A stretch of 34,405 nt of DNA from positions 1 through 34,405 of IMG/VR virus record IMGVR_UViG_3300025387_000046, one strand, 5' to 3'. Origin of the DNA: a virus (lineage: Duplodnaviria; Caudoviricetes). The translations under genes were made by a program, and so were the position numbers. Shown one piece after another: positions 2,839-29,055 of this stretch (position 1 is the first letter of the stretch; each line of letters starts with the position of its first letter). The notes under the pieces are model-generated. The model was not told the DNA's origin, made no database searches, and worked only from the letters and a program-made list of their open reading frames with translations.

Positions 2839-3375
2839 ATGAATATTTTCTATCTCCACCACGTTCCTAAAATTGCAGCAGGTATGCATTGCGACAAACA
2901 TGTCGGCAAAATGCTTATCGAGTCATGCCAAATGCTAGCCACTGCGCATCACCACTATGGCAATGGCCATATGGTTTCCTATAAGCCTACACACATCAAT
3001 CATCCAAGCAATGTCTGGGTGCGTCAGTACAGGCTCCATTATGATTGGCTTGGCGACCTTGTGTCCGCGTTAGGCAAAGAATTCTTTCGCCGTTACAACC
3101 ATCATCACAAATCTTATACTGTGTATATCAACGAGTTGCGCTTTGCCCCGCCTGCCATGCAAAAGCTCCCCCTATTATGGCAAGACCCCCCTTTGGCTAT
3201 GCCTGACGAGTACAAGTCCGATGACACCGTAATGGCCTACCGCCGCTTTTACGCCAGTAAAATCGACCGTATGCCCATGGTGTATTACAAAGGCCAACAA
3301 AAACCACCCATCTGGCTAACCGATATCTGGTCTGGCCGTATTGAACATTCCGAGCATTATATGGAGGCAGCATGA
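2839..3375 (+). CDS. pyrimidine-dimer DNA glycosylase / endonuclease V-like protein
   Basis: MNIFYL..P..AA..HCDKHV.KM.IE..QML.TAH, YKPTH.NHPS..W, P.AMPDEYK and AYR.FY motifs typical of this phage family. Confidence 0.7.
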   Translation: MNIFYLHHVPKIAAGMHCDKHVGKMLIESCQMLATAHHHYGNGHMVSYKPTHINHPSNVWVRQYRLHYDWLGDLVSALGKEFFRRYNHHHKSYTVYINELRFAPPAMQKLPLLWQDPPLAMPDEYKSDDTVMAYRRFYASKIDRMPMVYYKGQQKPPIWLTDIWSGRIEHSEHYMEAA

Positions 3376-3776
3376 CAAATTACGAATTAGTTAGAGTATT
3401 TAGAAAGCAAATGAAGCTGGAGGTGTCTGACACACCAGTATTGCTTAGCGCTGAGATGGTAAGTTACTTTTCACGCTTTATTCTTGAGGAGCTCAGTGAG
3501 TTCATGATGGCCAATGAATGTGAAAACATTGTGGACGCGGCCGACGCACTGGCTGACTTAGTCTACGTGACCATGGGCTGTGCTCAGGCTATGGGTTTGC
3601 CTTTTGACCAGATTTTTAAAGTGGTTCATGAAGCCAATATGCGAAAAGTAATTGCTCCCCCTGACAAACGGTCTGCATTTGGATCACAGCATGACTGTGT
3701 TAAGCCTGCCGATTGGCAACCCCCAGAGCCTTTAATCAAAACTATTATCCAAAAAGCCAAGGAGAATGCAGTATGA
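3372..3776 (+). CDS. MazG/PRA-PH-like all-alpha NTP pyrophosphatase
   Basis: EELSE...DALADLVYV.MG...VHEANM.K...KP.DW.PP motifs. Confidence 0.88.
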   Translation: MTNYELVRVFRKQMKLEVSDTPVLLSAEMVSYFSRFILEELSEFMMANECENIVDAADALADLVYVTMGCAQAMGLPFDQIFKVVHEANMRKVIAPPDKRSAFGSQHDCVKPADWQPPEPLIKTIIQKAKENAV

Positions 3777-5278: not shown

Positions 5279-7096
5279 ATGAAGCCTATTTTTTTAGATT
5301 TTGAAACCGAGGGCATCGAAGCTCGACCAAAGTACCCACCCTCACCGGTTGGGTTGGCCGTGTATGATCCGGAGGGGCAATTCCCCAACGCGTATTATTC
5401 TTTTGACCATTTACATGGGAACACATCTACGTTCTCAGAAGTCTATGACTTACTAACCGCTGTGTATTGTGGCCTTAGGCCTATATGTTTTCATAACGCT
5501 ATGTTTGACCTGGATGTGGTAGAAACACATTTTGGGCTGGCCATACCTGATACATCAAGGCTTCATGATACTTTAATCCTAGCCTTCCTTAATGACCCTC
5601 ATGTACAATCTTTGTCCCTCAAAGACTTGGTGGTTACATATGAATTGGCTCAGCCTGATGAAAGAGATGAGCTAAAAGAGTGGATTATTGAGAATGTACC
5701 CGAGGCCAAGAAAAAGAAATCTACCTGGGGAGCCTATATTTGTCGAGGCCCCACCGAGTTGGTAGGCCGGTACGCCATGGCCGATGTAAGGCTTACCTCT
5801 TTGTTGTATGACTTTTTATCGGAGAAGGTTTTACCCGCTCAGGCCGAGCCTTATCAACGTGAGATGGCCCTGATTCCCATGTTACTTGAAAATTCAAGGT
5901 TAGGTGTTCGAGTGGATGTGCCTGGTTTAGAAAAAGCAAAACTGCAAGCAGAAACGGATATTGCTTTAAGTACCGATTGGGTTCGTGCATTGTTAAATTC
6001 TCCTGATTTGAATGTAGACAGCGATCAACAGCTAGTTGAAGTTATTTATCAATCTGAGCACTGGGATAAAAATAAATCGTGGCCTAAAACGGATAAAGGC
6101 CAATTACAAGCAACCAAAGAAGCATTTGAGGAGATGTTAACCAATGAACACCTTAGAGACGTCCTTAGATACAGGGCCAACTTATCCACCTGCTTATCAA
6201 CATTTATTGAACCTTGGCTACACTCAGGGAGAGATACAGGCCGTATCTACACGAACTGGAATAGTGTACGTGGTGAAAGAGGCGGTACGCGGACGGGCAG
6301 GCTTAGCTCTACCCCCAACTTCCAAAACGCGCCTATTAGATACCCAAAAGTAAATTTGCCTGATGATTTAAAGGTTGCGCCTTTACCGCTTATTCGTAGC
6401 TTTATTCTTCCTGATGAAGGCCATAAGTTGGTGGCGTGTGACTTTAACGCTCAAGAGCTTCGTATCTTTGCCCACTTTGAAGGTGGCAATTTAATGAAGC
6501 AGTATCAAGCCGATGCGCGAGCGGACCTACATACTTACGCAGCCAAAATGATGACCGAGGCCAGCGGCCGCGAAGTAACTCGTACCTACTCCAAAGGTGT
6601 ATCATTTGCTATACTTTATGGGGCTGGGCCTAAGAAAATCAGTGAAATGTTGGAGGTGGACTATGAAATGGCAAAGACGCTTATGGATTCTTACACGACG
6701 GCGGTTGCGCCGGGTCTTAAAAGCATGCAAGCTACGATGAAGACTCGGTACAAGCTAGGGCAGCCTATTAAAACCATTGGCGGTCGGTTGGTTAAGATGG
6801 AGCCTGCCAAGGTAATTTACGGCAGACTTAGAGAGTTTGATTATAAAGGTGTTAATCTTTTGATTCAAGGCTCGGCGGCCGATCAGGCCAAAGCAGCCAT
6901 GCTGTTGTTTCAAAAGACTAGACAAGGGAGTAGATTGCTTTTAAGCGTGCATGATGAATTGGTAATCAGCGCGCCGATAGAAGCTATTGAAAGAGAGGCG
7001 GAATGTTTGATGCACGCTATGTGCAACGCCGTTCCAATGGATGTGCCTATGGTCAGTGACTATAAGGTGGGTTTAACTTATCAGGATACAAAATGA
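5279..7096 (+). CDS. polA: family A DNA polymerase with 3'-5' exonuclease
   Basis: Exonuclease motifs DFET, HNAMFD, YAMAD; TRTGRLSS.PNFQN; motif A DFNAQELR; motif B R..SK..SFAILYG; IQGSAAD; motif C VHDE. Confidence 0.97.
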   Translation: MKPIFLDFETEGIEARPKYPPSPVGLAVYDPEGQFPNAYYSFDHLHGNTSTFSEVYDLLTAVYCGLRPICFHNAMFDLDVVETHFGLAIPDTSRLHDTLILAFLNDPHVQSLSLKDLVVTYELAQPDERDELKEWIIENVPEAKKKKSTWGAYICRGPTELVGRYAMADVRLTSLLYDFLSEKVLPAQAEPYQREMALIPMLLENSRLGVRVDVPGLEKAKLQAETDIALSTDWVRALLNSPDLNVDSDQQLVEVIYQSEHWDKNKSWPKTDKGQLQATKEAFEEMLTNEHLRDVLRYRANLSTCLSTFIEPWLHSGRDTGRIYTNWNSVRGERGGTRTGRLSSTPNFQNAPIRYPKVNLPDDLKVAPLPLIRSFILPDEGHKLVACDFNAQELRIFAHFEGGNLMKQYQADARADLHTYAAKMMTEASGREVTRTYSKGVSFAILYGAGPKKISEMLEVDYEMAKTLMDSYTTAVAPGLKSMQATMKTRYKLGQPIKTIGGRLVKMEPAKVIYGRLREFDYKGVNLLIQGSAADQAKAAMLLFQKTRQGSRLLLSVHDELVISAPIEAIEREAECLMHAMCNAVPMDVPMVSDYKVGLTYQDTK

Positions 7097-7856: not shown

Positions 7857-8140
7857 AGCCCAAGCCAATTTTGGAACGAGACCTTGAGGGGTACTTTGCC
7901 AAGCAGTGTAAGAAAAAAGGTTTAATGACTTTAAAGCTTAATGTGCGTTTCAGTCGTGGTTGGCCCGATCGTATTGTTGTTTTGGAAAATGGCCAAGTGA
8001 TGTGGGTTGAGCTTAAAAGACCAGATGGTAAGTTATCACCACTTCAAATTAAGGTGCATCTTGAGCTTCATAAGTGGAAGCAAGAAGTGTATGTGGTAGA
8101 TTCTAAAGAGGGGATAGATAATGTTTTGGGAACCGCATGA
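7844..8140 (+). CDS. VRR-NUC domain endonuclease
   Basis: E..LE, GWPDR, VELKRPDGKLSPLQ motifs. Confidence 0.9.
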   Translation: MQMVKPKPILERDLEGYFAKQCKKKGLMTLKLNVRFSRGWPDRIVVLENGQVMWVELKRPDGKLSPLQIKVHLELHKWKQEVYVVDSKEGIDNVLGTA

Positions 8141-9506
8141 ATATCAAAAGGAAGCGGTTAAGTTTTTAATTGAGCGAGGCTCGGCCGCGCTTTGGCTTGA
8201 CCCCGGGCTTGGCAAAACTGCCATTGTCCTTTCAGCCTTTAAGGTCTTAAAAGCTAAAGGGCTTATTAATAAAATGCTGGTCCTGGCTCCCCTTAGGCCT
8301 ACATACGCCGTGTGGCCTACCGAGGTTAAAAAGTGGGAACAGTTTGAAAATCTATCCGTCGGTGTTTTGCATGGCGGTAAAAAAGATAAAGTGCTAAGAC
8401 AAAACCATGACATTTATGTTATGAACTTTGAAGGCCTACGCTGGCTATCAAGCAAATTAAATGGCAAACAATGGATCTTTGACATGCTAGTCGTGGATGA
8501 GATTAGCTATTTAAAGAACACGCAAACACAAAGATTTAAAACACTAAAGCCAGTACTAAATAAGTTTAAACGCCGCTGGGGCCTCACTGGATCCCCCGCT
8601 CCCAATAGCCTGTTGGATATATTTGGACCACAGCTTATAATTGACCAGGGGGCCACCTTTGGACCCTACATATCACATTTTAGGTCTGAGTTCTTTTATC
8701 CCTCGGGGTTCAATGGCTATGAATGGAAGTTAAAGCAAGATGGAGAAAAACGAATTCAAGAAAAGTTGGACGGTAAAGTTCTTCGGATGGCAGCTCTTGA
8801 TCATCTTGACTTACCTGAGTTGGCCTACAACAACATCTATGTCGAGCTCCCGGCTTCGGCACGTAAAGTTTACGACGCATTTGAAAAAGCTTTGACCATA
8901 GATATAGAGCAAGGCACGATCACTGCGGCCAACGCCGCCATCGCAGTCATGAAGGGCCAACAAATTGCCAATGGTGGTTCATACCTAGATGGAGAGGAGC
9001 GTGAAATACTTAAAATTCATGATACAAAGACTGAGGCTGTATTGGATCTTGTTGAGGAATTATCAGGAGATCCTTGCATTATCGGATACCACTTTGCCCA
9101 TGACCTTGATAGGCTTCAAAAGGCGTTTCCTGCTGCACCTGTTATTGGTTCGGGCGTGGTTGGCAATAAACTTGATGCTATTGTTAATGCTTGGAACGCC
9201 GGGGAAATACCGGTTTTATTGGCGCACCCAATGTCAGCAGGTCATGGTCTTAACCTTCAAGGCTCAGGCCATGCTGTTATATGGTACTCCTTGACTTGGT
9301 CACTCGAGGTATATGAACAATTTATTCGTAGGCTTTGGCGACAGGGTCAGAAAAACAGAATTATGGTCCATCATATTATTGCAAAAGATACGGTGGATGA
9401 AGCCATAATACAAGCGGTCAAACGCAAAGACAAGACTCAACAAAACTTGTTAAACGCTGTGCGTGACTACATCAATCGTGATACAATAGCTTCTATTGAT
9501 ATTTGA
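8121..9506 (+). CDS. SNF2-family helicase
   Basis: YQ, GLGKT, DEIS, LTGSP, GHGLNLQ and Q..RRL.RQGQ motifs. Confidence 0.95.
   Translation: MFWEPHEYQKEAVKFLIERGSAALWLDPGLGKTAIVLSAFKVLKAKGLINKMLVLAPLRPTYAVWPTEVKKWEQFENLSVGVLHGGKKDKVLRQNHDIYVMNFEGLRWLSSKLNGKQWIFDMLVVDEISYLKNTQTQRFKTLKPVLNKFKRRWGLTGSPAPNSLLDIFGPQLIIDQGATFGPYISHFRSEFFYPSGFNGYEWKLKQDGEKRIQEKLDGKVLRMAALDHLDLPELAYNNIYVELPASARKVYDAFEKALTIDIEQGTITAANAAIAVMKGQQIANGGSYLDGEEREILKIHDTKTEAVLDLVEELSGDPCIIGYHFAHDLDRLQKAFPAAPVIGSGVVGNKLDAIVNAWNAGEIPVLLAHPMSAGHGLNLQGSGHAVIWYSLTWSLEVYEQFIRRLWRQGQKNRIMVHHIIAKDTVDEAIIQAVKRKDKTQQNLLNAVRDYINRDTIASIDI
9479..9487 (+). promoter_or_regulatory. putative extended -10 promoter for the modification operon
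   Basis: TG-A-TACAAT inside the helicase 3' end, about 30 nt before ATG 9517 with a GAAAGGA RBS. Confidence 0.35.
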
Positions 9507-9516
9507 AAGGAAACAT

Positions 9517-9720
9517 ATGAAGCCTGATTTTTTTAAATCCATCATCGCTGTCTTAGTTAAAGACAACCCCAAACGTAAAAACACAAACGCATTTACAAGG
9601 TTTGCGCTGTACAAAAGCGGTATGACCGTGGATGAGTATATTGCTGCCGGGGGCAAATTAGCCGACATTAAACATGACGTAGCTAATGAGTTTATCAGCG
9701 TAACCACAAAAGGCGTGTAA
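9517..9720 (+). CDS. small basic hypothetical protein (67 aa), possibly DNA-binding
   Basis: Start moved to ATG 9517 after GAAAGGA; NPKRK...RF..Y..GMTV.EY...GG...DI..D pattern. Confidence 0.7.
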   Translation: MKPDFFKSIIAVLVKDNPKRKNTNAFTRFALYKSGMTVDEYIAAGGKLADIKHDVANEFISVTTKGV

Positions 9721-10622
9721 TGAATATACTTATTACCGGCGTAACCGAGACGCACACTAACCATCCACAACGCGCCAAGTCAACTAAGTTTGTCTCTATT
9801 CCCGAGCTCATGGCAGATGGGTATGGAAGATTGGGGCATTACGTTGAGCATAGACCCGTTACAATAGGCGAGGATTTATCCAGGTATGATAAAGTCTTTG
9901 TGTATCTTTATCCTTTGGATGGCAACGCCATTTTACCAGATAGTGCCCTTTACGCATTAGAAAAAAGACCTGACGCGTATATATGCTTGGATGACTGGGC
10001 TTTTCAAAAGATCTTACCTTCATGGAAAGATAAAATTGACCCTGAAGAGCTTACAGCTCGCACCTGGATTGCGCCCTTATTCCCTTGGGGTGATGTTAAA
10101 AAGATGAACCTACCTGTAGAAAAGATTCTACCCTGGGACCCGTCATCACTTTACACCATGCCCCCTGTATATAAATTAAGCTGGAGGCAACGCAAACAAT
10201 CGTGGTATAACGCATCATTATCAAAGGAATCACATGAATGGGCCAGCGCTCAAGGCCTTAAGTGGCCTGTATATTCAGTTGGAGGTAAATCTCTCGGACA
10301 AACAAGGGTATTGGAAAGTGATGTTGTATGGGAGTATGGGTCTTACCGTGGAGTTTTATGTCCAACCTACGCTCATGCAGGGTGTGGATGGTGGAGAGTT
10401 CGGTATTTGCACGCTGCAGCTGCCGGATCTCTCCTCGGCGGCAACCCAGTTGAACTAGGCATGATTGGTGAGTCTTATAGCTTTACACTACATACGTTGG
10501 AAGATATGTATGACACAGACTTGGAGTACTTGGCCAATCAACAAGCGTTGGAGCTTAAAACCGATACTCTAAAAACCACAATTACTAAATTAGAAAGCTT
10601 TATAAATGATCATAATTCTTGA
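9720..10622 (+). CDS. putative GT-B-fold (beta-glucosyltransferase-like) DNA glycosyltransferase
   Basis: Rossmann-type start MNILITG, L...Y..LGH.V, DLSRYDKVFV, and a C-terminal Y..Y.GVL.P.Y.....WW..RY..AA..G segment resembling GT-B donor-binding domains. Operon context supports the call. Confidence 0.5.
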   Translation: MNILITGVTETHTNHPQRAKSTKFVSIPELMADGYGRLGHYVEHRPVTIGEDLSRYDKVFVYLYPLDGNAILPDSALYALEKRPDAYICLDDWAFQKILPSWKDKIDPEELTARTWIAPLFPWGDVKKMNLPVEKILPWDPSSLYTMPPVYKLSWRQRKQSWYNASLSKESHEWASAQGLKWPVYSVGGKSLGQTRVLESDVVWEYGSYRGVLCPTYAHAGCGWWRVRYLHAAAAGSLLGGNPVELGMIGESYSFTLHTLEDMYDTDLEYLANQQALELKTDTLKTTITKLESFINDHNS

Positions 10623-11538
10623 GGGTCCAGATGGCGCGGGTAAAACCACGTTGGCTGAGACATTACGACAAAAGTTGCAAGGCAACAAGCTGGTGCATAT
10701 TGTCAAGCATGGCCCATACAAAGATTTAGAGCCCGAGCATTTATGCAAGATCTATTTTCGAGGTATGACCCCGGCTTTAACCCATGATGATATTGTCATT
10801 ATGGATAGGTCTTGGCTGTCTGAGCCTATTTATGGCAGTGTGTACAGAGATGGGGCTAATCGTATGGATAAGCCAAGACAGCGCATGTTGGAAAGAGCTG
10901 CCCTATCAAGGGGTGTTGTAGTCATTAATTGTTTGCCTGAGTATGAGGTATGCTTAAAAACATTTACCGGTAGAATGGAGGATGAGTACCTTGATAATGC
11001 TAAGCAACTACAACAGGTTTATCAAGAGTATGAAATGTTAGACATTAATACTTGTATGCCTGTTTTGCAATATGATTACATGCATGACACCGTGGATGAT
11101 CTTATTTATAACATACGCAACACGTCCATAGATAATAAGGCCAGTGGTGGTGGATGCTTTAATGAGGGGAATATCCTTATGCTTTGTGATAAGGGCCCCA
11201 GAACCAACGTACGTGACACCGCGGTGGTTATTCCCTTCATTAACTTCCTTGACAATGATGGGCCTAGTAGAATGTTGGCCACCGCTTTGGAGCAGGAAGG
11301 CATCAACGAGTCCGATATTTACTGGATTAATACTCAGACTTATCAAGGCGCGCCTTTAGACCCTGGGTTTTTAAAAGATCTTAACCCTGGCAAAATCTAT
11401 GCTCTTGGCAACAACGCCTATACCTGGGCTTTAAACAATCACATTAAAGTGATTAAACTTCCTCCTCCATTGCATCACATGCAGTATTACCCCGATGAAC
11501 CTTACCGCATTACAGGATTAAACCATGGAAATTTCTAG
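10606..11538 (+). CDS. dNMP (thymidylate-like) kinase fused to a degenerate UDG-like domain
   Basis: N-terminal IIILEGPDGAGKTT and DRSWLSE.IYG. C-terminal ILML.D..P..PF.....L..AL...GI..IYWIN...LNP.KIYALGN.A resembles the uracil-DNA glycosylase fold. Confidence 0.8.
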   Translation: MIIILEGPDGAGKTTLAETLRQKLQGNKLVHIVKHGPYKDLEPEHLCKIYFRGMTPALTHDDIVIMDRSWLSEPIYGSVYRDGANRMDKPRQRMLERAALSRGVVVINCLPEYEVCLKTFTGRMEDEYLDNAKQLQQVYQEYEMLDINTCMPVLQYDYMHDTVDDLIYNIRNTSIDNKASGGGCFNEGNILMLCDKGPRTNVRDTAVVIPFINFLDNDGPSRMLATALEQEGINESDIYWINTQTYQGAPLDPGFLKDLNPGKIYALGNNAYTWALNNHIKVIKLPPPLHHMQYYPDEPYRITGLNHGNF

Positions 11539-12310
11539 AATCAATCGTGAAGAAGACCTTATCTACTTATACCGCGCGCTTGAAAAAGACGGTGTGTGGA
11601 CAAGCCCCAGAGGTGAAAAGACACTTGAAATTGAAAACTTTACTTATTCCGTTGCCCCATTTGTGCGCTTTAATTCTTTTGCTGGAAGAAATTTCAACCT
11701 AACGTATCTTAAGCGTGAAATGGCTTGGTATCTCCGAGCCGATCCTACTGATTTATCTATTGCGGAGCATGCAGCTCAGTGGGGAAAAATCGTCGCCAAT
11801 GGAAAGCTTAATAGCAACTATGGGTCTTACTGGTTTGGTAAATACGGTGTCAAATATATTATAGCTATACTTCAAAAAGATGCTATGTCCCGGCGCGCAG
11901 TGATTCCTATGTACGGCACCGACATAGATCATATGGACCTTGACGCTAAGGATGTGCCTTGTACATTGGCCATAGAGTTCAGGCTTAGAGATGGATATTT
12001 ACATGCACGAGCCATTATGCGGTCACAGGATATTCTTTGGGGCATGGGGAATGACTTGCCTACTTTTAGCTTTTTACAAGAAATTGTGGCCGTACTTTTA
12101 AACGCCAATGTAGGCACACTCACAATCTCGGTTGGATCTTTCCACGTGTATGAATCACGCATTCATATGTTTCACTCAATACTAAGCCAAAGCAAGCATG
12201 AGGCTATTAAAGACAAGCCGCCACGCATCAGCCGGTATGAAGCTCATAATCTTATTGAGCACTCCATTAACCCAACATTTGAGTTCTCAAGATGGCTACA
12301 GAACATTTAG
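11525..12310 (+). CDS. thymidylate-synthase homologue, dCMP hydroxymethylase-like
   Basis: SPRG.KT.E, EMAWY, NSNYG, SRRA, catalytic PC (Cys146), MRSQD, HVYE; Asp177 (GND) at the dUMP/dCMP specificity position. Confidence 0.85.
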   Translation: MEISRINREEDLIYLYRALEKDGVWTSPRGEKTLEIENFTYSVAPFVRFNSFAGRNFNLTYLKREMAWYLRADPTDLSIAEHAAQWGKIVANGKLNSNYGSYWFGKYGVKYIIAILQKDAMSRRAVIPMYGTDIDHMDLDAKDVPCTLAIEFRLRDGYLHARAIMRSQDILWGMGNDLPTFSFLQEIVAVLLNANVGTLTISVGSFHVYESRIHMFHSILSQSKHEAIKDKPPRISRYEAHNLIEHSINPTFEFSRWLQNI

Positions 12311-25135: not shown

Positions 25136-25330
25136 TCAGGCTGACGGGTTGCCTGGTGTTTCAATTATCCTGAGCAAAACCACGACCACGGAAATTATAA
25201 TGCCCACTAACATCTGATGAACAGGAGTCAGCGGGAAAACAAACAGAAAACCCTGCAATACGGACAGCACCGCAATAAACAACGCCCAAAGAACGTGCTT
25301 GTCTTTTAATAGCGTGGTAAGTTGGTTCAT
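25136..25330 (-). CDS. holin-like 2-TM protein (64 aa)
   Basis: Start moved to MNQLTT (25330, ATGA overlap); two TM helices ending LRII.T.P. Confidence 0.65.
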   Translation of the reverse strand: MNQLTTLLKDKHVLWALFIAVLSVLQGFLFVFPLTPVHQMLVGIIISVVVVLLRIIETPGNPSA

Positions 25331-26469
25331 ATTCCTACCTTGGCTTTGAGTGCTTGGATTTCTGTAGCTTGTTCTGTAACAAGTGCATTTAATTGTTGAA
25401 CCGCATTCCATAAAATTGCAACCATGTTTGTTGGAGCAAGTTTTAAATAATTAGGGTCAGACGCATCAACTAAAGGTTCTGTTCCCTCATTAGACTGAAC
25501 ATCTTGTGCAGACCAACCAAAATAAACTGGACCAGTTGCTTCTTCACTATCTCTTGAAACTTTAAATTGGTATGCAATAGTGTTTACTTTATTTACAAAA
25601 TCTAACCCAAGTGTAATTGGACGTATATTTGTTTTTTCTCTAATATCTGAAGTGTTAATTGTTCCTGTTTTGCAATATAAAGTTGTTGTGGAATTGTTTC
25701 CAAGAACCACTAAATTGCTATTAGTAGTCAATGATAAGAAAGCATCAGCACCAGAATTTACACCAAGAAGTACATTGTTTGATCCAGTAGTTAAAGATGA
25801 ACCAGCACCTTGTCCAATAAGCGTATTGCTACTTGCCGTACCTGCCAAAGCATAACCTGATGCATCTCCTACACAAGTATTACTTGTTCCAGTTATGGCG
25901 GTTGCCCCTTGTGATCCACTTCTTGAACCCACAAATACATTAACATTGCCAGTTGATAAATTTAAACCTGATTGATAACCAATAGCTGTATTTAATGCAT
26001 TTACATCTGCTGTATGATTTGAGTTATAAAGAGATTGATAACCTACTGCTGTGTTGTAAGATGCTGTGGTGTTGTTGTAAAGAGATTGAGTTCCAACACC
26101 AGTATTATTTGATCCAGTAGTTGTATATTGCAATGCGCTTGCGCCTATTGCTGAATTTGCTCCTCCAGATGTAACGCTATACAAAGACCCAAAACCAAAT
26201 CCAGAATTGTATGTTCCCGTAACAACTCCAGTAGCCATACTATTTGCGCCAACAGCAGTATTAACAGAGCCTGTACTATTTAACGCCAAAGCACTAGCAC
26301 CCACCGCAGTATTTGTAGATACAGACCCTGCACCTTGACCTACTGTTAGTCCGTGTACAGTTATATCGGCAGATACTGATCCGCCCGTCAAAGGCAAAGC
26401 CGCAGTAGACTGTGTTGTTGAGTCACTAAACGTAATTGATGGGGCTGATCCCCCAATGACTGTTGTCAT
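25327..26469 (-). CDS. tail fibre with YadA-head-like repeats and C-terminal intramolecular chaperone (peptidase S74-like)
   Basis: Many 14-aa NTAVG..(A/S)L..(N/T)T.G repeats; SDIREKTNI motif; terminal coiled coil. Confidence 0.85.
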   Translation of the reverse strand: MTTVIGGSAPSITFSDSTTQSTAALPLTGGSVSADITVHGLTVGQGAGSVSTNTAVGASALALNSTGSVNTAVGANSMATGVVTGTYNSGFGFGSLYSVTSGGANSAIGASALQYTTTGSNNTGVGTQSLYNNTTASYNTAVGYQSLYNSNHTADVNALNTAIGYQSGLNLSTGNVNVFVGSRSGSQGATAITGTSNTCVGDASGYALAGTASSNTLIGQGAGSSLTTGSNNVLLGVNSGADAFLSLTTNSNLVVLGNNSTTTLYCKTGTINTSDIREKTNIRPITLGLDFVNKVNTIAYQFKVSRDSEEATGPVYFGWSAQDVQSNEGTEPLVDASDPNYLKLAPTNMVAILWNAVQQLNALVTEQATEIQALKAKVGI

Positions 26470-26681
26470 GGTAATGTCTCCAAGAATGTTGTGATTTGCT
26501 CAGGTGTCATTTGATTGCCCTCTGCATCTTTTAATTCCACACCATTTGCCAAGTCTTTTTTGAAGCGTTGGTAGTCTGTGTTGTCTGGGTGAAAACCAAA
26601 ACTAGTACTTGTAGTATTTCCATTATCACGAATAACACCATTAGGCGTGTTTGATATTTGGCTTAAAAGTAATGTGTACAT
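26466..26681 (-). CDS. putative tail-fibre assembly chaperone
   Basis: 71 aa; F.PDNTDYQ.F motif; lies between fibre genes. Confidence 0.55.
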   Translation of the reverse strand: MYTLLLSQISNTPNGVIRDNGNTTSTSFGFHPDNTDYQRFKKDLANGVELKDAEGNQMTPEQITTFLETLP

Positions 26682-27806
26682 TTATAGCTCCGCAGTAAAT
26701 AAAAGATAGCTTGTATTATTGCCGTTTGACATTATTGCTCCCGCATTTCCTAGAACAACTGTGTTACCAGTTGTTACGTTTACACAAGCCGCATTTATAT
26801 TAGTTCCATCCGCTCCAATTGCAATTGCAGAACCCGCATTAATTGTTGCTTTTGTGTATATACAAAATTGAGACGCCGCAGGGGTTGTTAACGCAGGGTA
26901 AGTTCTCATTTGAACTGGAAAGAAAACATCCGCAGTTATTTGCGTAGTTGAATTACATTCACCATAAGCGTATCTATTGTAAGAACCATTACAGTTAGCT
27001 GAATTTACATTTAAACAATACCTCTGACACAAAGCCAACTCAGTACCATAAGGACGATAATCAAAAGATGTTGCTTGGGTTCCTACTTCTAGTTGAACGC
27101 CTGTAATATAGAAGGTTGCATTGTTTGTGCTAACAACACTCACTGCCCCTGTTGAAGACGCATAGTTTGCTGATGCCCATGCACCCGCTGTGCCACTATA
27201 AGTTGTGCCAACACCTAATCCTAATGCAAAAATAATTCCAATACCATTAGTTGTAAGCCATGTTCCAGAAGTATCTCCAGGTATTGTTATTGACACATAC
27301 GTCCATGTATTAGCGGAAGGGATAGAATAATTGAACGGGTATGATCTACCACCTCCGTTATTTCTTAAAGACCCTCCAAAAGTTCCTGTTAATGAACTGT
27401 ATGCCCAAAAAGACAACGTCACTGTTTTAGCAGATGATGTTCCCCATCCTAAATCTGTAATATTCAACCCTTCAATATTTTGACCTAAAGTAAAAATATC
27501 TGTTGCGGCTAAAGTATATGCAGATGAAGATTGAGCACCTGCATAATTAGTAAATCCAGTAGGAGGAGAAACGCCATTTAAATTTGGCAACATTGTAAAT
27601 TTACCTGCTTGATTGCCAAATCCGATAAATCTATCTATAAAGTATAGTACCCCATTTATATTAGCTGTCGCACTTGCAAAACCATATTGGTTTACATTCA
27701 TCGCACCATTAATAATCCTATTACGCAATGATGTAATGTTTGGGCTTATTACCCCACCCGTTGAACTGGTTATGTTCTCAGCGTTGACTGTTCCGTATGT
27801 TGCCAT
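26682..27806 (-). CDS. tail fibre / receptor-binding protein (carbohydrate-binding-like domain)
   Basis: RNRIING.M, VTLSFW, GVQLEVGT.AT.FDYRPYGTELALCQRY motifs; ends AEL. Confidence 0.75.
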   Translation of the reverse strand: MATYGTVNAENITSSTGGVISPNITSLRNRIINGAMNVNQYGFASATANINGVLYFIDRFIGFGNQAGKFTMLPNLNGVSPPTGFTNYAGAQSSSAYTLAATDIFTLGQNIEGLNITDLGWGTSSAKTVTLSFWAYSSLTGTFGGSLRNNGGGRSYPFNYSIPSANTWTYVSITIPGDTSGTWLTTNGIGIIFALGLGVGTTYSGTAGAWASANYASSTGAVSVVSTNNATFYITGVQLEVGTQATSFDYRPYGTELALCQRYCLNVNSANCNGSYNRYAYGECNSTTQITADVFFPVQMRTYPALTTPAASQFCIYTKATINAGSAIAIGADGTNINAACVNVTTGNTVVLGNAGAIMSNGNNTSYLLFTAEL

Positions 27807-27807
27807 G

Positions 27808-29055
27808 TTATGCTCCTACCTTTGCTTCTAGAGCTTTTAGTCTTGCTCTTAGGGATTTCAACTCTGCAATAATGTTAGCCATTATTTCTGGAGAATCATA
27901 AGCCATTGATTGGTATACAGGAACAGTTCTTGTACCCATTACAGCAGGAATTGTAATATTTCCTTGTTCATCTCTTACCGCAGGAGTTACTTCATATTGC
28001 TCTTCTCTTGTTGCATCTTTTGTGCCTTGAACTGATGACGGAGAAACCAATTGCACTTCGTCAGCTATAAACCCAACAAAAGGACTTCCGTCAGATTTAA
28101 AAGTTCCAACTTTAGGTTGCAAAGCATCTATAAAAGAACCTGATGTAGTAAGTTCTCCAATTATATTTTTTAACCTGTAATCGGATGGTTGATTTAATGT
28201 AGTAGTAGTTCCGTTCGTTGTTATACTTCCTGCGGAAGTAACTGAAGAACCATAAAAAAATGAAGCTAAATATATTGTTCCACTTGCTGCATTGTTCCAT
28301 AATAATAATGGATTATTAGCAGCACTTCCTGTTGCTTTAAAAGTTACTGTATTTCCAGAACTTACTGCTGATAATGTAGATTCGTTTATTAAAGCTGATG
28401 TTGTTCCAATGAATAAATGACCACTATTATCTAGTGTCATGTTAGTGGCAAAAGTAATAGTGCTACCAGCAGTTTGAGTTGCATCGGTGCTTTGAGCAAA
28501 ACTAACACTACCATTATTAAAATCTATTCTTGATGCTTTGTATCCGCTATTTTTATAAACCCAATTTGAAGAATTATTTAAATAAGCATTTTCAAAAATG
28601 TGAAAATCTGGAATATTGCTACCGCCTGAATATGCCATTACTCCAGTTCCGTTAGGAAACTCAAGTGCTTTATAAGATGTATTCCAAGCACTAGGAGTAA
28701 CTCCTAATCCTAAGTTACCAGAGGTGTCAAGGGTCATCTGCACAGCAGAATTTGTAGAAAAAGTTAATGGGACAAAAGAACCAGTACTTCCATAAGTTGA
28801 TGAAATATTTGTAGCTGTCGTTGATGTAGACAAAAGAAGTTGAATATCGTTTGCTACAGAATAAGTTGGAGCTACTGTACCAATAACCTGAAGAGTTCTG
28901 CTAGGACTACTTGTACCAATACCAACCCTTTGAGATGTATCTATTGTTACCGCAGTAGTACCACCATTGGTTTGCAACTGCAATATGCCCGATGTGTCAC
29001 CAGTAATCTGTATTGGTGTTAGGGTTGTGGTTCCTGCATTAATAATTGATGCCAT
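27808..29055 (-). CDS. tail fibre with C-terminal intramolecular chaperone (peptidase S74-like)
   Basis: VGIGTSSP and MTLD.SG.L..G.T repeats; SDYRLK, GFIADEVQ motifs; terminal coiled coil. Confidence 0.85.
   Translation of the reverse strand: MASIINAGTTTLTPIQITGDTSGILQLQTNGGTTAVTIDTSQRVGIGTSSPSRTLQVIGTVAPTYSVANDIQLLLSTSTTATNISSTYGSTGSFVPLTFSTNSAVQMTLDTSGNLGLGVTPSAWNTSYKALEFPNGTGVMAYSGGSNIPDFHIFENAYLNNSSNWVYKNSGYKASRIDFNNGSVSFAQSTDATQTAGSTITFATNMTLDNSGHLFIGTTSALINESTLSAVSSGNTVTFKATGSAANNPLLLWNNAASGTIYLASFFYGSSVTSAGSITTNGTTTTLNQPSDYRLKNIIGELTTSGSFIDALQPKVGTFKSDGSPFVGFIADEVQLVSPSSVQGTKDATREEQYEVTPAVRDEQGNITIPAVMGTRTVPVYQSMAYDSPEIMANIIAELKSLRARLKALEAKVGA

Follow-up and report, generated by a model that had tools for sequence, protein, structure and literature searches.

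Phage T4 carries a cytosine hypermodification pathway that yields glucosyl-5-hydroxymethylcytosine and is made up of gp42, gp1, gp56 and the glucosyltransferases AGT and BGT. In T4 dCMP hydroxymethylase, Asp145, Ser94 and Tyr96 constitute a hydroxymethylation signature required for activity, and the roles of Asp145 and Cys148 have been described (PMC6400193). Among homologues of thymidylate synthase (TS), Asp177 confers selectivity for dCMP, non-methyl products go with an acidic residue at position 143, and D169N marks the hydroxylases, every tested hydroxylase having Asn there (PMC13326640); the deoxy substrate is preferred where Ser and Arg are present (PMC5175136). Here, a 34,405-nucleotide stretch of viral DNA (IMG/VR record IMGVR_UViG_3300025387_000046, Caudoviricetes), called the window, was analysed. 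The window is the entire source record (34.4 kb), which contains no further sequence. A module of four genes at positions 9517 to 12310 encodes a small basic protein, a GT-B-like glycosyltransferase (GT), a kinase fusion protein and a TS homologue (Table 1), and we estimate a probability of about three in four that these genes specify a T4-type cytosine hypermodification pathway.

All four genes lie on the + strand, and the neighbouring open reading frames (ORFs) overlap by 1, 17 and 14 bases, consistent with the coupling described in an earlier note made from the letters of this DNA. The best PDB matches of the TS homologue are MilA (E 3.8e-16) and T4 gp42 (4.2e-13), with ThyA behind (1e-8). 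Its residues include Glu65, Ser97, Tyr99, Arg123, Asp143, Cys146, Ser167, Asp169, Asp177, His207 and Tyr209. The catalytic Cys146 (TGT, 11960), the motif RSQDILWGMGND and the NSNYG motif are all present as the earlier note had claimed, and the Asp that it placed at the position of ThyA Asn177 is Asp177 (GAC, 12053-12055). In addition to the catalytic Cys, the equivalent of Glu60 is found as Glu65. The T4 signature is matched by Asp143, Ser97 and Tyr99, and the deoxyribose-preference residues are Ser167 and Arg123, not the Ala176 and Lys133 of MilA. The D169N replacement of the 5-hydroxy-dCMP synthases is absent, the sequence being RSQD here versus RSQN in RB69, and Asn177 and Leu143 of canonical ThyA are both replaced with Asp. 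The motifs KDVPC, RSQD, ND and NSNYG are kept in 56/56 copies of the window's clade, counted across 63 loci, 7 of which end short of the TS gene.

The phylogeny that the earlier note had proposed as a check supports this assignment. In a 23-row tree, the TS homologue falls in a 100/100 branch with gp42 of T4, FBB1 and Aeromonas phage 25, which also includes the proteins of RsoM2USA, Xp15 and Acinetobacter MD-2021a; RB69 gp48 and FBB1 td form long branches of unsure placement. Together, the full T4 dCMP hydroxymethylase residue set, the lack of D169N and the grouping with gp42 make 5-hydroxymethylcytosine (5hmC) the likely base, rather than 5-methylcytosine (5mC) or 5-hydroxycytosine (5hoC). 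The TS homologue is very probably a dCMP hydroxymethylase, and known enzymes argue strongly for 5-hydroxymethyl-dCMP (5hm-dCMP) as its product. The C5 modification of dCMP foreseen in the earlier note, by "hydroxymethyl or another group", is narrowed to hydroxymethyl by the published signatures.

The genes surrounding other TS relatives were also inspected. The closest cultured relatives come from Xp15 and Acinetobacter MD-2021a, where they are encoded near a carbamoyltransferase (L070:3336-6759 and L071:2874-6774), and from the jumbo phage RsoM2USA (39%; L069:5962-6798), with no transferase annotated nearby. Pelagibacter phage HTVC119P (L166:5001-6285) has a kinase and a TS with Asp143/Asp169/Asp177 (D/D/D), with no glycosyltransferase annotated within the stretch seen.

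An AlphaFold model of the 300-aa protein (pLDDT 91) adopts a GT-B fold. T4 BGT was the top match in Foldseek (E 1.1e-5) and, as entry 1c3j, was ranked first by VIA (Z 17.1, rmsd 3.9, 276 aligned). The model and the two fold aligners bear out the GT-B-like protein of the earlier note, and at the level of the predicted structure the fold is regarded as sure; it does not by itself prove a DNA acceptor. The protein has no Pfam match, PF09198 (BGT) and PF11440 (AGT) included, and its only PHROG match is phrog_14998, of unknown function. Comparison of the family profile with PDB sequences gave nothing relevant, and global hhalign found no link to BGT. The family comprises 599 clusters at 50% identity and is represented by no Pfam model. 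Among aligned members, Arg226 and Arg228 are present in 131/131 and Asp92, within a DDW motif, in 130/131. In BGT, Asp100 follows strand 4 and is catalytic; Asp92 is its candidate equivalent, judged from topology.

A scan of 24 family proteins, comprising the long members and the top matches, found fusion to a C5-cytosine methylase in three, to a SAM methyltransferase in two and to dUTPase_2 in one. The fusions, which include a tandem double GT, are P0195, P0208, P0210, P0109, P0131, P0110 and P0083; P0087 and P0084 gave no matches when used for locus scans. Descriptions of the GT family and of the kinase fusion discussed below were not found in the available sections of the literature searched, including PMC13229309, PMC8056088 and PMC13390438, and Iyer et al. 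2013 may hold an earlier description of either.

The argument for a DNA acceptor is carried by gene context. Distant GT loci comprised 12 from an 80-locus set, the other 68 being the window's clade, and 80 further loci. A kinase and a TS were found within 8 kb in 12/12 loci of the first set, and 21 loci of the second reach a TS; of the readable TS motifs across both sets, 28/29 are D/D/D. A D/D/D TS is likewise present in six carriers that are cultured or recorded in GenBank (Aeromonas phage 25, FBB1, DSL-LC01, Manatee MW202657, Mareelih and GodonK). In C48C1, the seventh such carrier, no TS was matched, and a TET/JBP gene adjoins the GT. Members of the GT family thus accompany a source of hydroxymethyl-pyrimidine wherever enough context is visible. 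Aeromonas phage 25 and FBB1 have gp42 and no match to PF09198 or PF11440, and the two complete relatives of the window have no match to PF09198 (BGT); the T4 positive control matched in both searches. This context provides moderate to strong support for DNA 5hmC as the GT acceptor.

A UDP-galactopyranose mutase gene and the GT-family gene follow motA in Aeromonas phage 25 (L068:4896-7077) and Erwinia phage FBB1 (L067:4937-7062), making these phages cultured test cases for galactofuranosyl-5hmC. A TET/JBP dioxygenase, the GT-family gene and the mutase are consecutive in C48C1 (L064:4586-8033) and in L303 (3718-8015), a contig binned in a Bacteroidetes metagenome-assembled genome (MAG).

The kinase domain matches PF02223 (E 3.4e-8) and phrog_761 (E 2.4e-22), and its model aligns with YorR (2axp; VIA Z 17.6) in fold searches that covered residues 1-184. 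The dNMP kinase fusion of the earlier note is correct as to kinase and fusion, and its partner can be specified as a domain resembling uracil-DNA glycosylase (UDG). Residues 172-310 are strongly conserved. The C-terminal domain has no direct Pfam match, and Atlas scores it 0.89 against clusters in which 18-36% of the members carry PF03167, which is a lead only. Full-length hhalign to gp315 of Bacillus phage G gave a match (89%, E 2.3e-6), and the C-terminal half of gp315 is PF03167 (E 1.5e-12). The KHPA of gp315 aligns to an invariant PPPL in the window kinase, with Pro at the motif-B histidine position in 28/28 aligned copies. The motif-B His (HP motif) of UDG is catalytic, and its replacement by PPP makes uracil excision unlikely; the domain probably serves for binding or as a scaffold, without catalysis. 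Known enzymes lend moderate support to 5hm-dCMP as the kinase substrate. Stenotrophomonas phage AXL3 shares this kinase fusion (33% over 95%), there next to an Asp177 TS, and its DNA was cut by 2/37 restriction enzymes, both with A/T-only sites, and resisted 35/37 (PMC7504290). Bacillus phage G (L164:2248-7984) groups an AGT-like gene with a deaminase gene, a D/D/D TS gene and a kinase-UDG gene whose HP motif is intact.

Conservation of the module was assessed with the upstream SNF2 helicase as an unbiased anchor, from which 80 loci were fetched, many of them close kin. The GT is present in 69/69 loci with at least 600 bases downstream, and GT, kinase and TS all follow the helicase in 52/52 loci that continue for 2.9 kb or more beyond it, 49 of which also have the small gene. 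In GT-anchored loci the small gene is found in 59/63, being missing from L036, L037, L051 and L059. The module is core to this freshwater phage clade. A high-GC contig with long-tail-type genes (L076:1529-4359) has the order GT, small gene, kinase-UDG, TS after an SNF2 helicase, and the same four genes reordered on this backbone indicate that the cassette has moved between backbones.

In the proposed pathway, the TS homologue would convert dCMP to 5hm-dCMP, which the kinase would phosphorylate, with host NDP kinase completing the triphosphate (5hm-dCTP). The family A polymerase would place 5hm-dCTP into DNA, and the GT-B enzyme would transfer one sugar to the hydroxymethyl group in DNA, with a host nucleotide-sugar as donor. 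The logic of the earlier note (C5-modified dCMP, kinase, PolA incorporation, transferase and host donor) holds. Gene context moderately supports a role of the modification in defence against nucleases.

A host donor agrees with the lack of sugar-pathway families in the 71/82 unshared ORFs scanned in the two complete relatives, G002 and G005; the 11 left out were short or judged opposite-frame. Since the GT is core to a clade carrying no sugar-synthesis gene, a common host nucleotide-sugar is the simplest donor, and the host is its likely supplier. Phage GTs acting on the E. coli pool gave hexose, N-acetylhexosamine (HexNAc), heptose, 3-deoxy-D-manno-oct-2-ulosonic acid (Kdo) and uronic acids (bioRxiv 10.1101/2023.12.21.572611), and this variety makes glucose only the likeliest guess. 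Given glycosylation, glucose, as a common host hexose, would lead at somewhat below even odds, galactofuranose (Galf) would be a minority choice, and the remainder falls to other sugars.

The mutase adjoins the GT-family gene in DSL-LC01, FBB1, Aeromonas phage 25, C48C1 and L303. Galf drawn from host UDP-Galf, a sub-case of the T4-type pathway that would give an unreported base, is suggested by these five cases in two separate branches and by the phage mutase proposed to serve DNA galactosylation in RL38JI (PMC13326640). It is nevertheless an unlikely outcome for the window. The mutase is absent from 5/5 clade genomes (2 complete; the control was positive in 4/14 genomes) and from 92/92 distant IMG/VR loci (65 of them extending 1.5 kb or more on each side), and it was not found in Manatee MW202657, Mareelih or GodonK. 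The window's clade lies in neither of the two distant mutase branches (quick tree). Gordonia hosts make UDP-Galf, which would explain the mutase-free carriers there. Use of UDP-Galf by the whole GT family was also considered and is weakened by the 0/92 distant loci and by the restriction of mutase-adjacent cases to two branches. More broadly, the BGT-fold family may be a non-glucose DNA transferase (using, for example, host UDP-Galf) with the UDG-like domain as a base-reading or scaffold module, a tentative proposal that we consider less probable than its converse. No report of galactofuranosyl- or galactosyl-5hmC was found in the available sections of the literature searched. The final base is possibly undescribed, as the earlier note suggested, and with a non-glucose sugar a common freshwater clade would bear a chemically unreported glycosyl-5hmC.

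A rather improbable alternative is that 5hmC DNA is made and the GT-B enzyme acts on a protein, a host surface molecule or a free nucleotide, or lacks a donor. GT-B enzymes with non-DNA acceptors score nearly as high as BGT, phage GT clusters have also been read as cell-surface modifiers (PMC7824862), and several phage GT-B enzymes yielded no product in E. coli (bioRxiv 10.1101/2023.12.21.572611); however, the GT is translationally coupled to kinase and TS in the clade, travels with a hydroxymethyl-pyrimidine source in unrelated phages, and has family members fused to C5 methylases. That the TS homologue yields another C5 product, 5-methyl-dCMP or 5-hydroxy-dCMP, is very improbable: Asp169 is kept where tested hydroxylases all have Asn, the published hydroxymethylation signature is present, and 5mC would leave the GT without an acceptor. 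In its favour, the RB69/DLP3 hydroxylases are also acidic at position 143, YorR, the kinase's best fold match, is shared with the RB69/DLP3 clusters (PMC13326640), and the product rules derive from few tested enzymes. Hardly any weight is given to ordinary thymidylate supply by ThyA and a dTMP kinase beside an unrelated neighbour, the interpretation of the corresponding pair in the AXL3 paper (PMC7504290) and the one implied by the Pfam labels thymidylate synthase and thymidylate kinase, as Asp177 and Asp143 occur in 56/56 copies and the TS groups with gp42, apart from the canonical FBB1 td.

Several observations weigh against the T4-type pathway itself. PimA and AGT reach Z 15.8 with the GT model, only 1.3 below BGT, and sequence profiles give no link between the GT family and BGT (33%, 46 columns). 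The AXL3 TS belongs to another branch, and AXL3 has no GT-family match. No dCMP deaminase was recognised in the 71/82 unshared ORFs of the complete relatives. Because the loci counted above are related and overlap between searches, their counts cannot be treated as independent. CCWGG is strongly depleted in each of the six clade sequences (the window and G001-G005), with observed/expected counts of 44/64, 72/108, 16/81, 77/104, 89/154 and 21/99, and under a maximal-order model the two lowest-ranking pooled hexamers are GGCGCC and GGTACC, both moderately depleted. CCWGG, the Dcm/EcoRII site, is the lowest of about 512 pentamers in 4/6 sequences and eighth in the other two, and is not depleted in short control stretches of T4, RB69 and Aeromonas phage 25. 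Sites made up of A/T only and sites containing C were not told apart by palindrome avoidance. The CCWGG depletion agrees with protection being incomplete and suggests partial substitution of C, or an inherited bias, the genomes being related; substitution in this phage may be partial.

Table 1. Module genes, key codons and associated replication genes, with positions in the window
Feature	Position	Strand	Remarks
Small basic protein	9517..9720	+	67 aa from ATG; AAGGAA ribosome-binding-like site upstream
GT-B glycosyltransferase of uncharacterised family, predicted DNA 5hmC sugar transferase	9720..10622	+	300 aa
Asp92 codon, DDW motif, candidate catalytic base	9993..9995	+	Past fourth N-domain strand (E87-89)
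Kinase fusion protein	10606-11538	+	310 aa
P-loop nucleotide-kinase domain (YorR/thymidylate-kinase-like), predicted 5hm-dCMP kinase	10606..11130	+	Residues 1-175
UDG-like C-terminal domain of kinase, likely catalytically dead	11131..11538	+	
TS homologue with dCMP-hydroxymethylase signature	11525..12310	+	261 aa
Asp143 (water-activating; Leu in ThyA) and catalytic Cys146	11951..11962	+	
Asp169 (D169N hydroxylase mark absent) through Asp177 (cytosine specificity)	12029..12055	+	
SNF2-type helicase	8121..9506	+	PF00176, E 6.3e-21; directly upstream; unbiased anchor
Family A DNA polymerase, predicted to incorporate 5hm-dCTP	5279..7096	+	PF00476, E 1.2e-57
MazG-like/PRA-PH NTP pyrophosphatase, candidate dCTPase	3372..3776	+	PF01503, E 9e-16

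The small basic protein has the motif NPKR...RFALY..GMT..EY..AGG..D...D. It has no Pfam or PHROG match and no relative among PDB entries, its Atlas matches are unnamed viral clusters, and it weakly resembles phiJL001 gp18 (E 7e-3). In 35 longer relatives it forms the C-terminal domain. A Pfam partner was recognised in only one of them, a GT-A fragment encoded on a contig that is short and possibly chimeric. In phiJL001 the domain ends gp18, directly upstream of gp19 (L075:7743-9048). As gp19 is an aGPT-Pplase-type thymidine-modifying transferase, the domain lies ahead of an enzyme of DNA modification in each of two phages that are unrelated. The small protein is accessory and not essential to the module.

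The module is not the free-standing operon of the earlier note. It forms the 3' end of a + strand replication run (DUF932, MazG-like, PolA, PD-(D/E)XK, VRR-NUC, SNF2), starting 10 bases past the helicase stop, with structural genes on the - strand beyond. Promoter-like sites are not enriched over shuffles (9 vs 11.3). As to the dCTPase that accompanies the T4 pathway in the earlier note, a candidate exists in the MazG/PRA-PH gene and sits outside the 9517..12310 region considered there. This gene was found in 31/31 loci spanning its region, and its assignment as a dCTPase fits the MetaGPA finding that PRA-PH domains and TS occur together on contigs that are modified (PMC8670742); gene context supports it with moderate confidence. 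A phrog_624 "DNA binding protein" (2839-3375) is kept upstream of the MazG-like gene. It may resemble DenV-like glycosylases.

Five clade relatives measure 55.7-59.7 kb, two being complete with terminal repeats, and these relatives supply terminase, portal, capsid and primase. A podovirus-like identity of the phage is plausible. The window encodes an Rz-like spanin, from which a Gram-negative host is inferred; a search of genome contigs found two distant contigs in MAGs and no clue to the host. All listed metagenome runs (24/24) are freshwater or lake, and half or more of the sampled words are present in 15/24, four of them flagged as a possible source. At 25327-29055, three tail-fibre-like genes, two carrying Peptidase_S74 chaperone domains, are unlike the laminin-G or glycine-rich fibres of the relatives. 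In G005, a Cpn10 gene and a 2OG-Fe(II) oxygenase gene lie amid structural genes (L082:3928-4347 and L084:4915-5520). A 228-240 aa gene of unknown family lies 3' of the TS in the two complete relatives (L081:1696-2415 and L083:10940-11623) and is absent from the window.

If the proposed pathway is correct, T4-type glycosyl-5hmC would be core to a widespread clade of small PolA lake phages that build it from different parts; the pathway type itself is known from T4 and would not surprise a specialist. The GT product could be determined directly in cultured carriers (Aeromonas phage 25, FBB1, the Gordonia phages and DSL-LC01), and the small three-enzyme cassette should be easy to reconstitute and could provide a new 5hmC-labelling enzyme.

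Among known systems, the module most likely works as the T4 pathway without the GT, kinase or dCTPase families of T4. Like T4, it has a gp42-branch hydroxymethylase with all signature residues, a kinase, an NTP pyrophosphatase, a GT-B enzyme best matched to BGT and a donor that is likely the host's. Unlike T4, it belongs to a PolA phage of about 55-60 kb, judged from relatives; its GT lies outside PF09198 and PF11440, a YorR/Tmk-like kinase with a UDG-like domain stands in place of gp1 and a MazG-like enzyme in place of gp56, and the clade shows CCWGG depletion and no recognised dCMP deaminase within the ORFs scanned. RB69 and DLP3 (arabinosyl-5hoC) and RL38JI (galactosyl-5hoC) also cluster an N177D TS, a YorR-like kinase and a GT-B enzyme, but their TS proteins have D169N and the phages encode a sugar pathway (PMC13326640), whereas the TS homologue of the window retains Asp169 and sugar genes were not found.

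Clusters of a cytosine-5 methyltransferase (C5-MT), TET and GT contain BGT-like GT-B enzymes that place varied host-pool sugars onto 5hmC (bioRxiv 10.1101/2023.12.21.572611), and some members of the window's GT family are fused to C5-MT or lie beside TET/JBP. Modification in those clusters is post-replicative, whereas 5hmC of the window phage would arise at the nucleotide level. AXL3 (gp28-gp30) and phage G (gp313-gp319) resemble the window in combining a fusion of kinase and UDG-like domain with a nearby TS of the Asp177 type; AXL3 DNA resists enzymes with G/C sites (PMC7504290), and phage G has its AGT-like gene nearby. They differ in a TS from other branches and a retained motif-B His, and AXL3 in having no member of the window's GT family. 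Xp15 and Acinetobacter MD-2021a provide close cultured TS relatives (37-40%, same branch), but their TS is paired with a carbamoyltransferase, not a glycosyltransferase (compare 5-carbamoyloxymethyl-2'-deoxycytidine, 5cmdC; PMC8670742).

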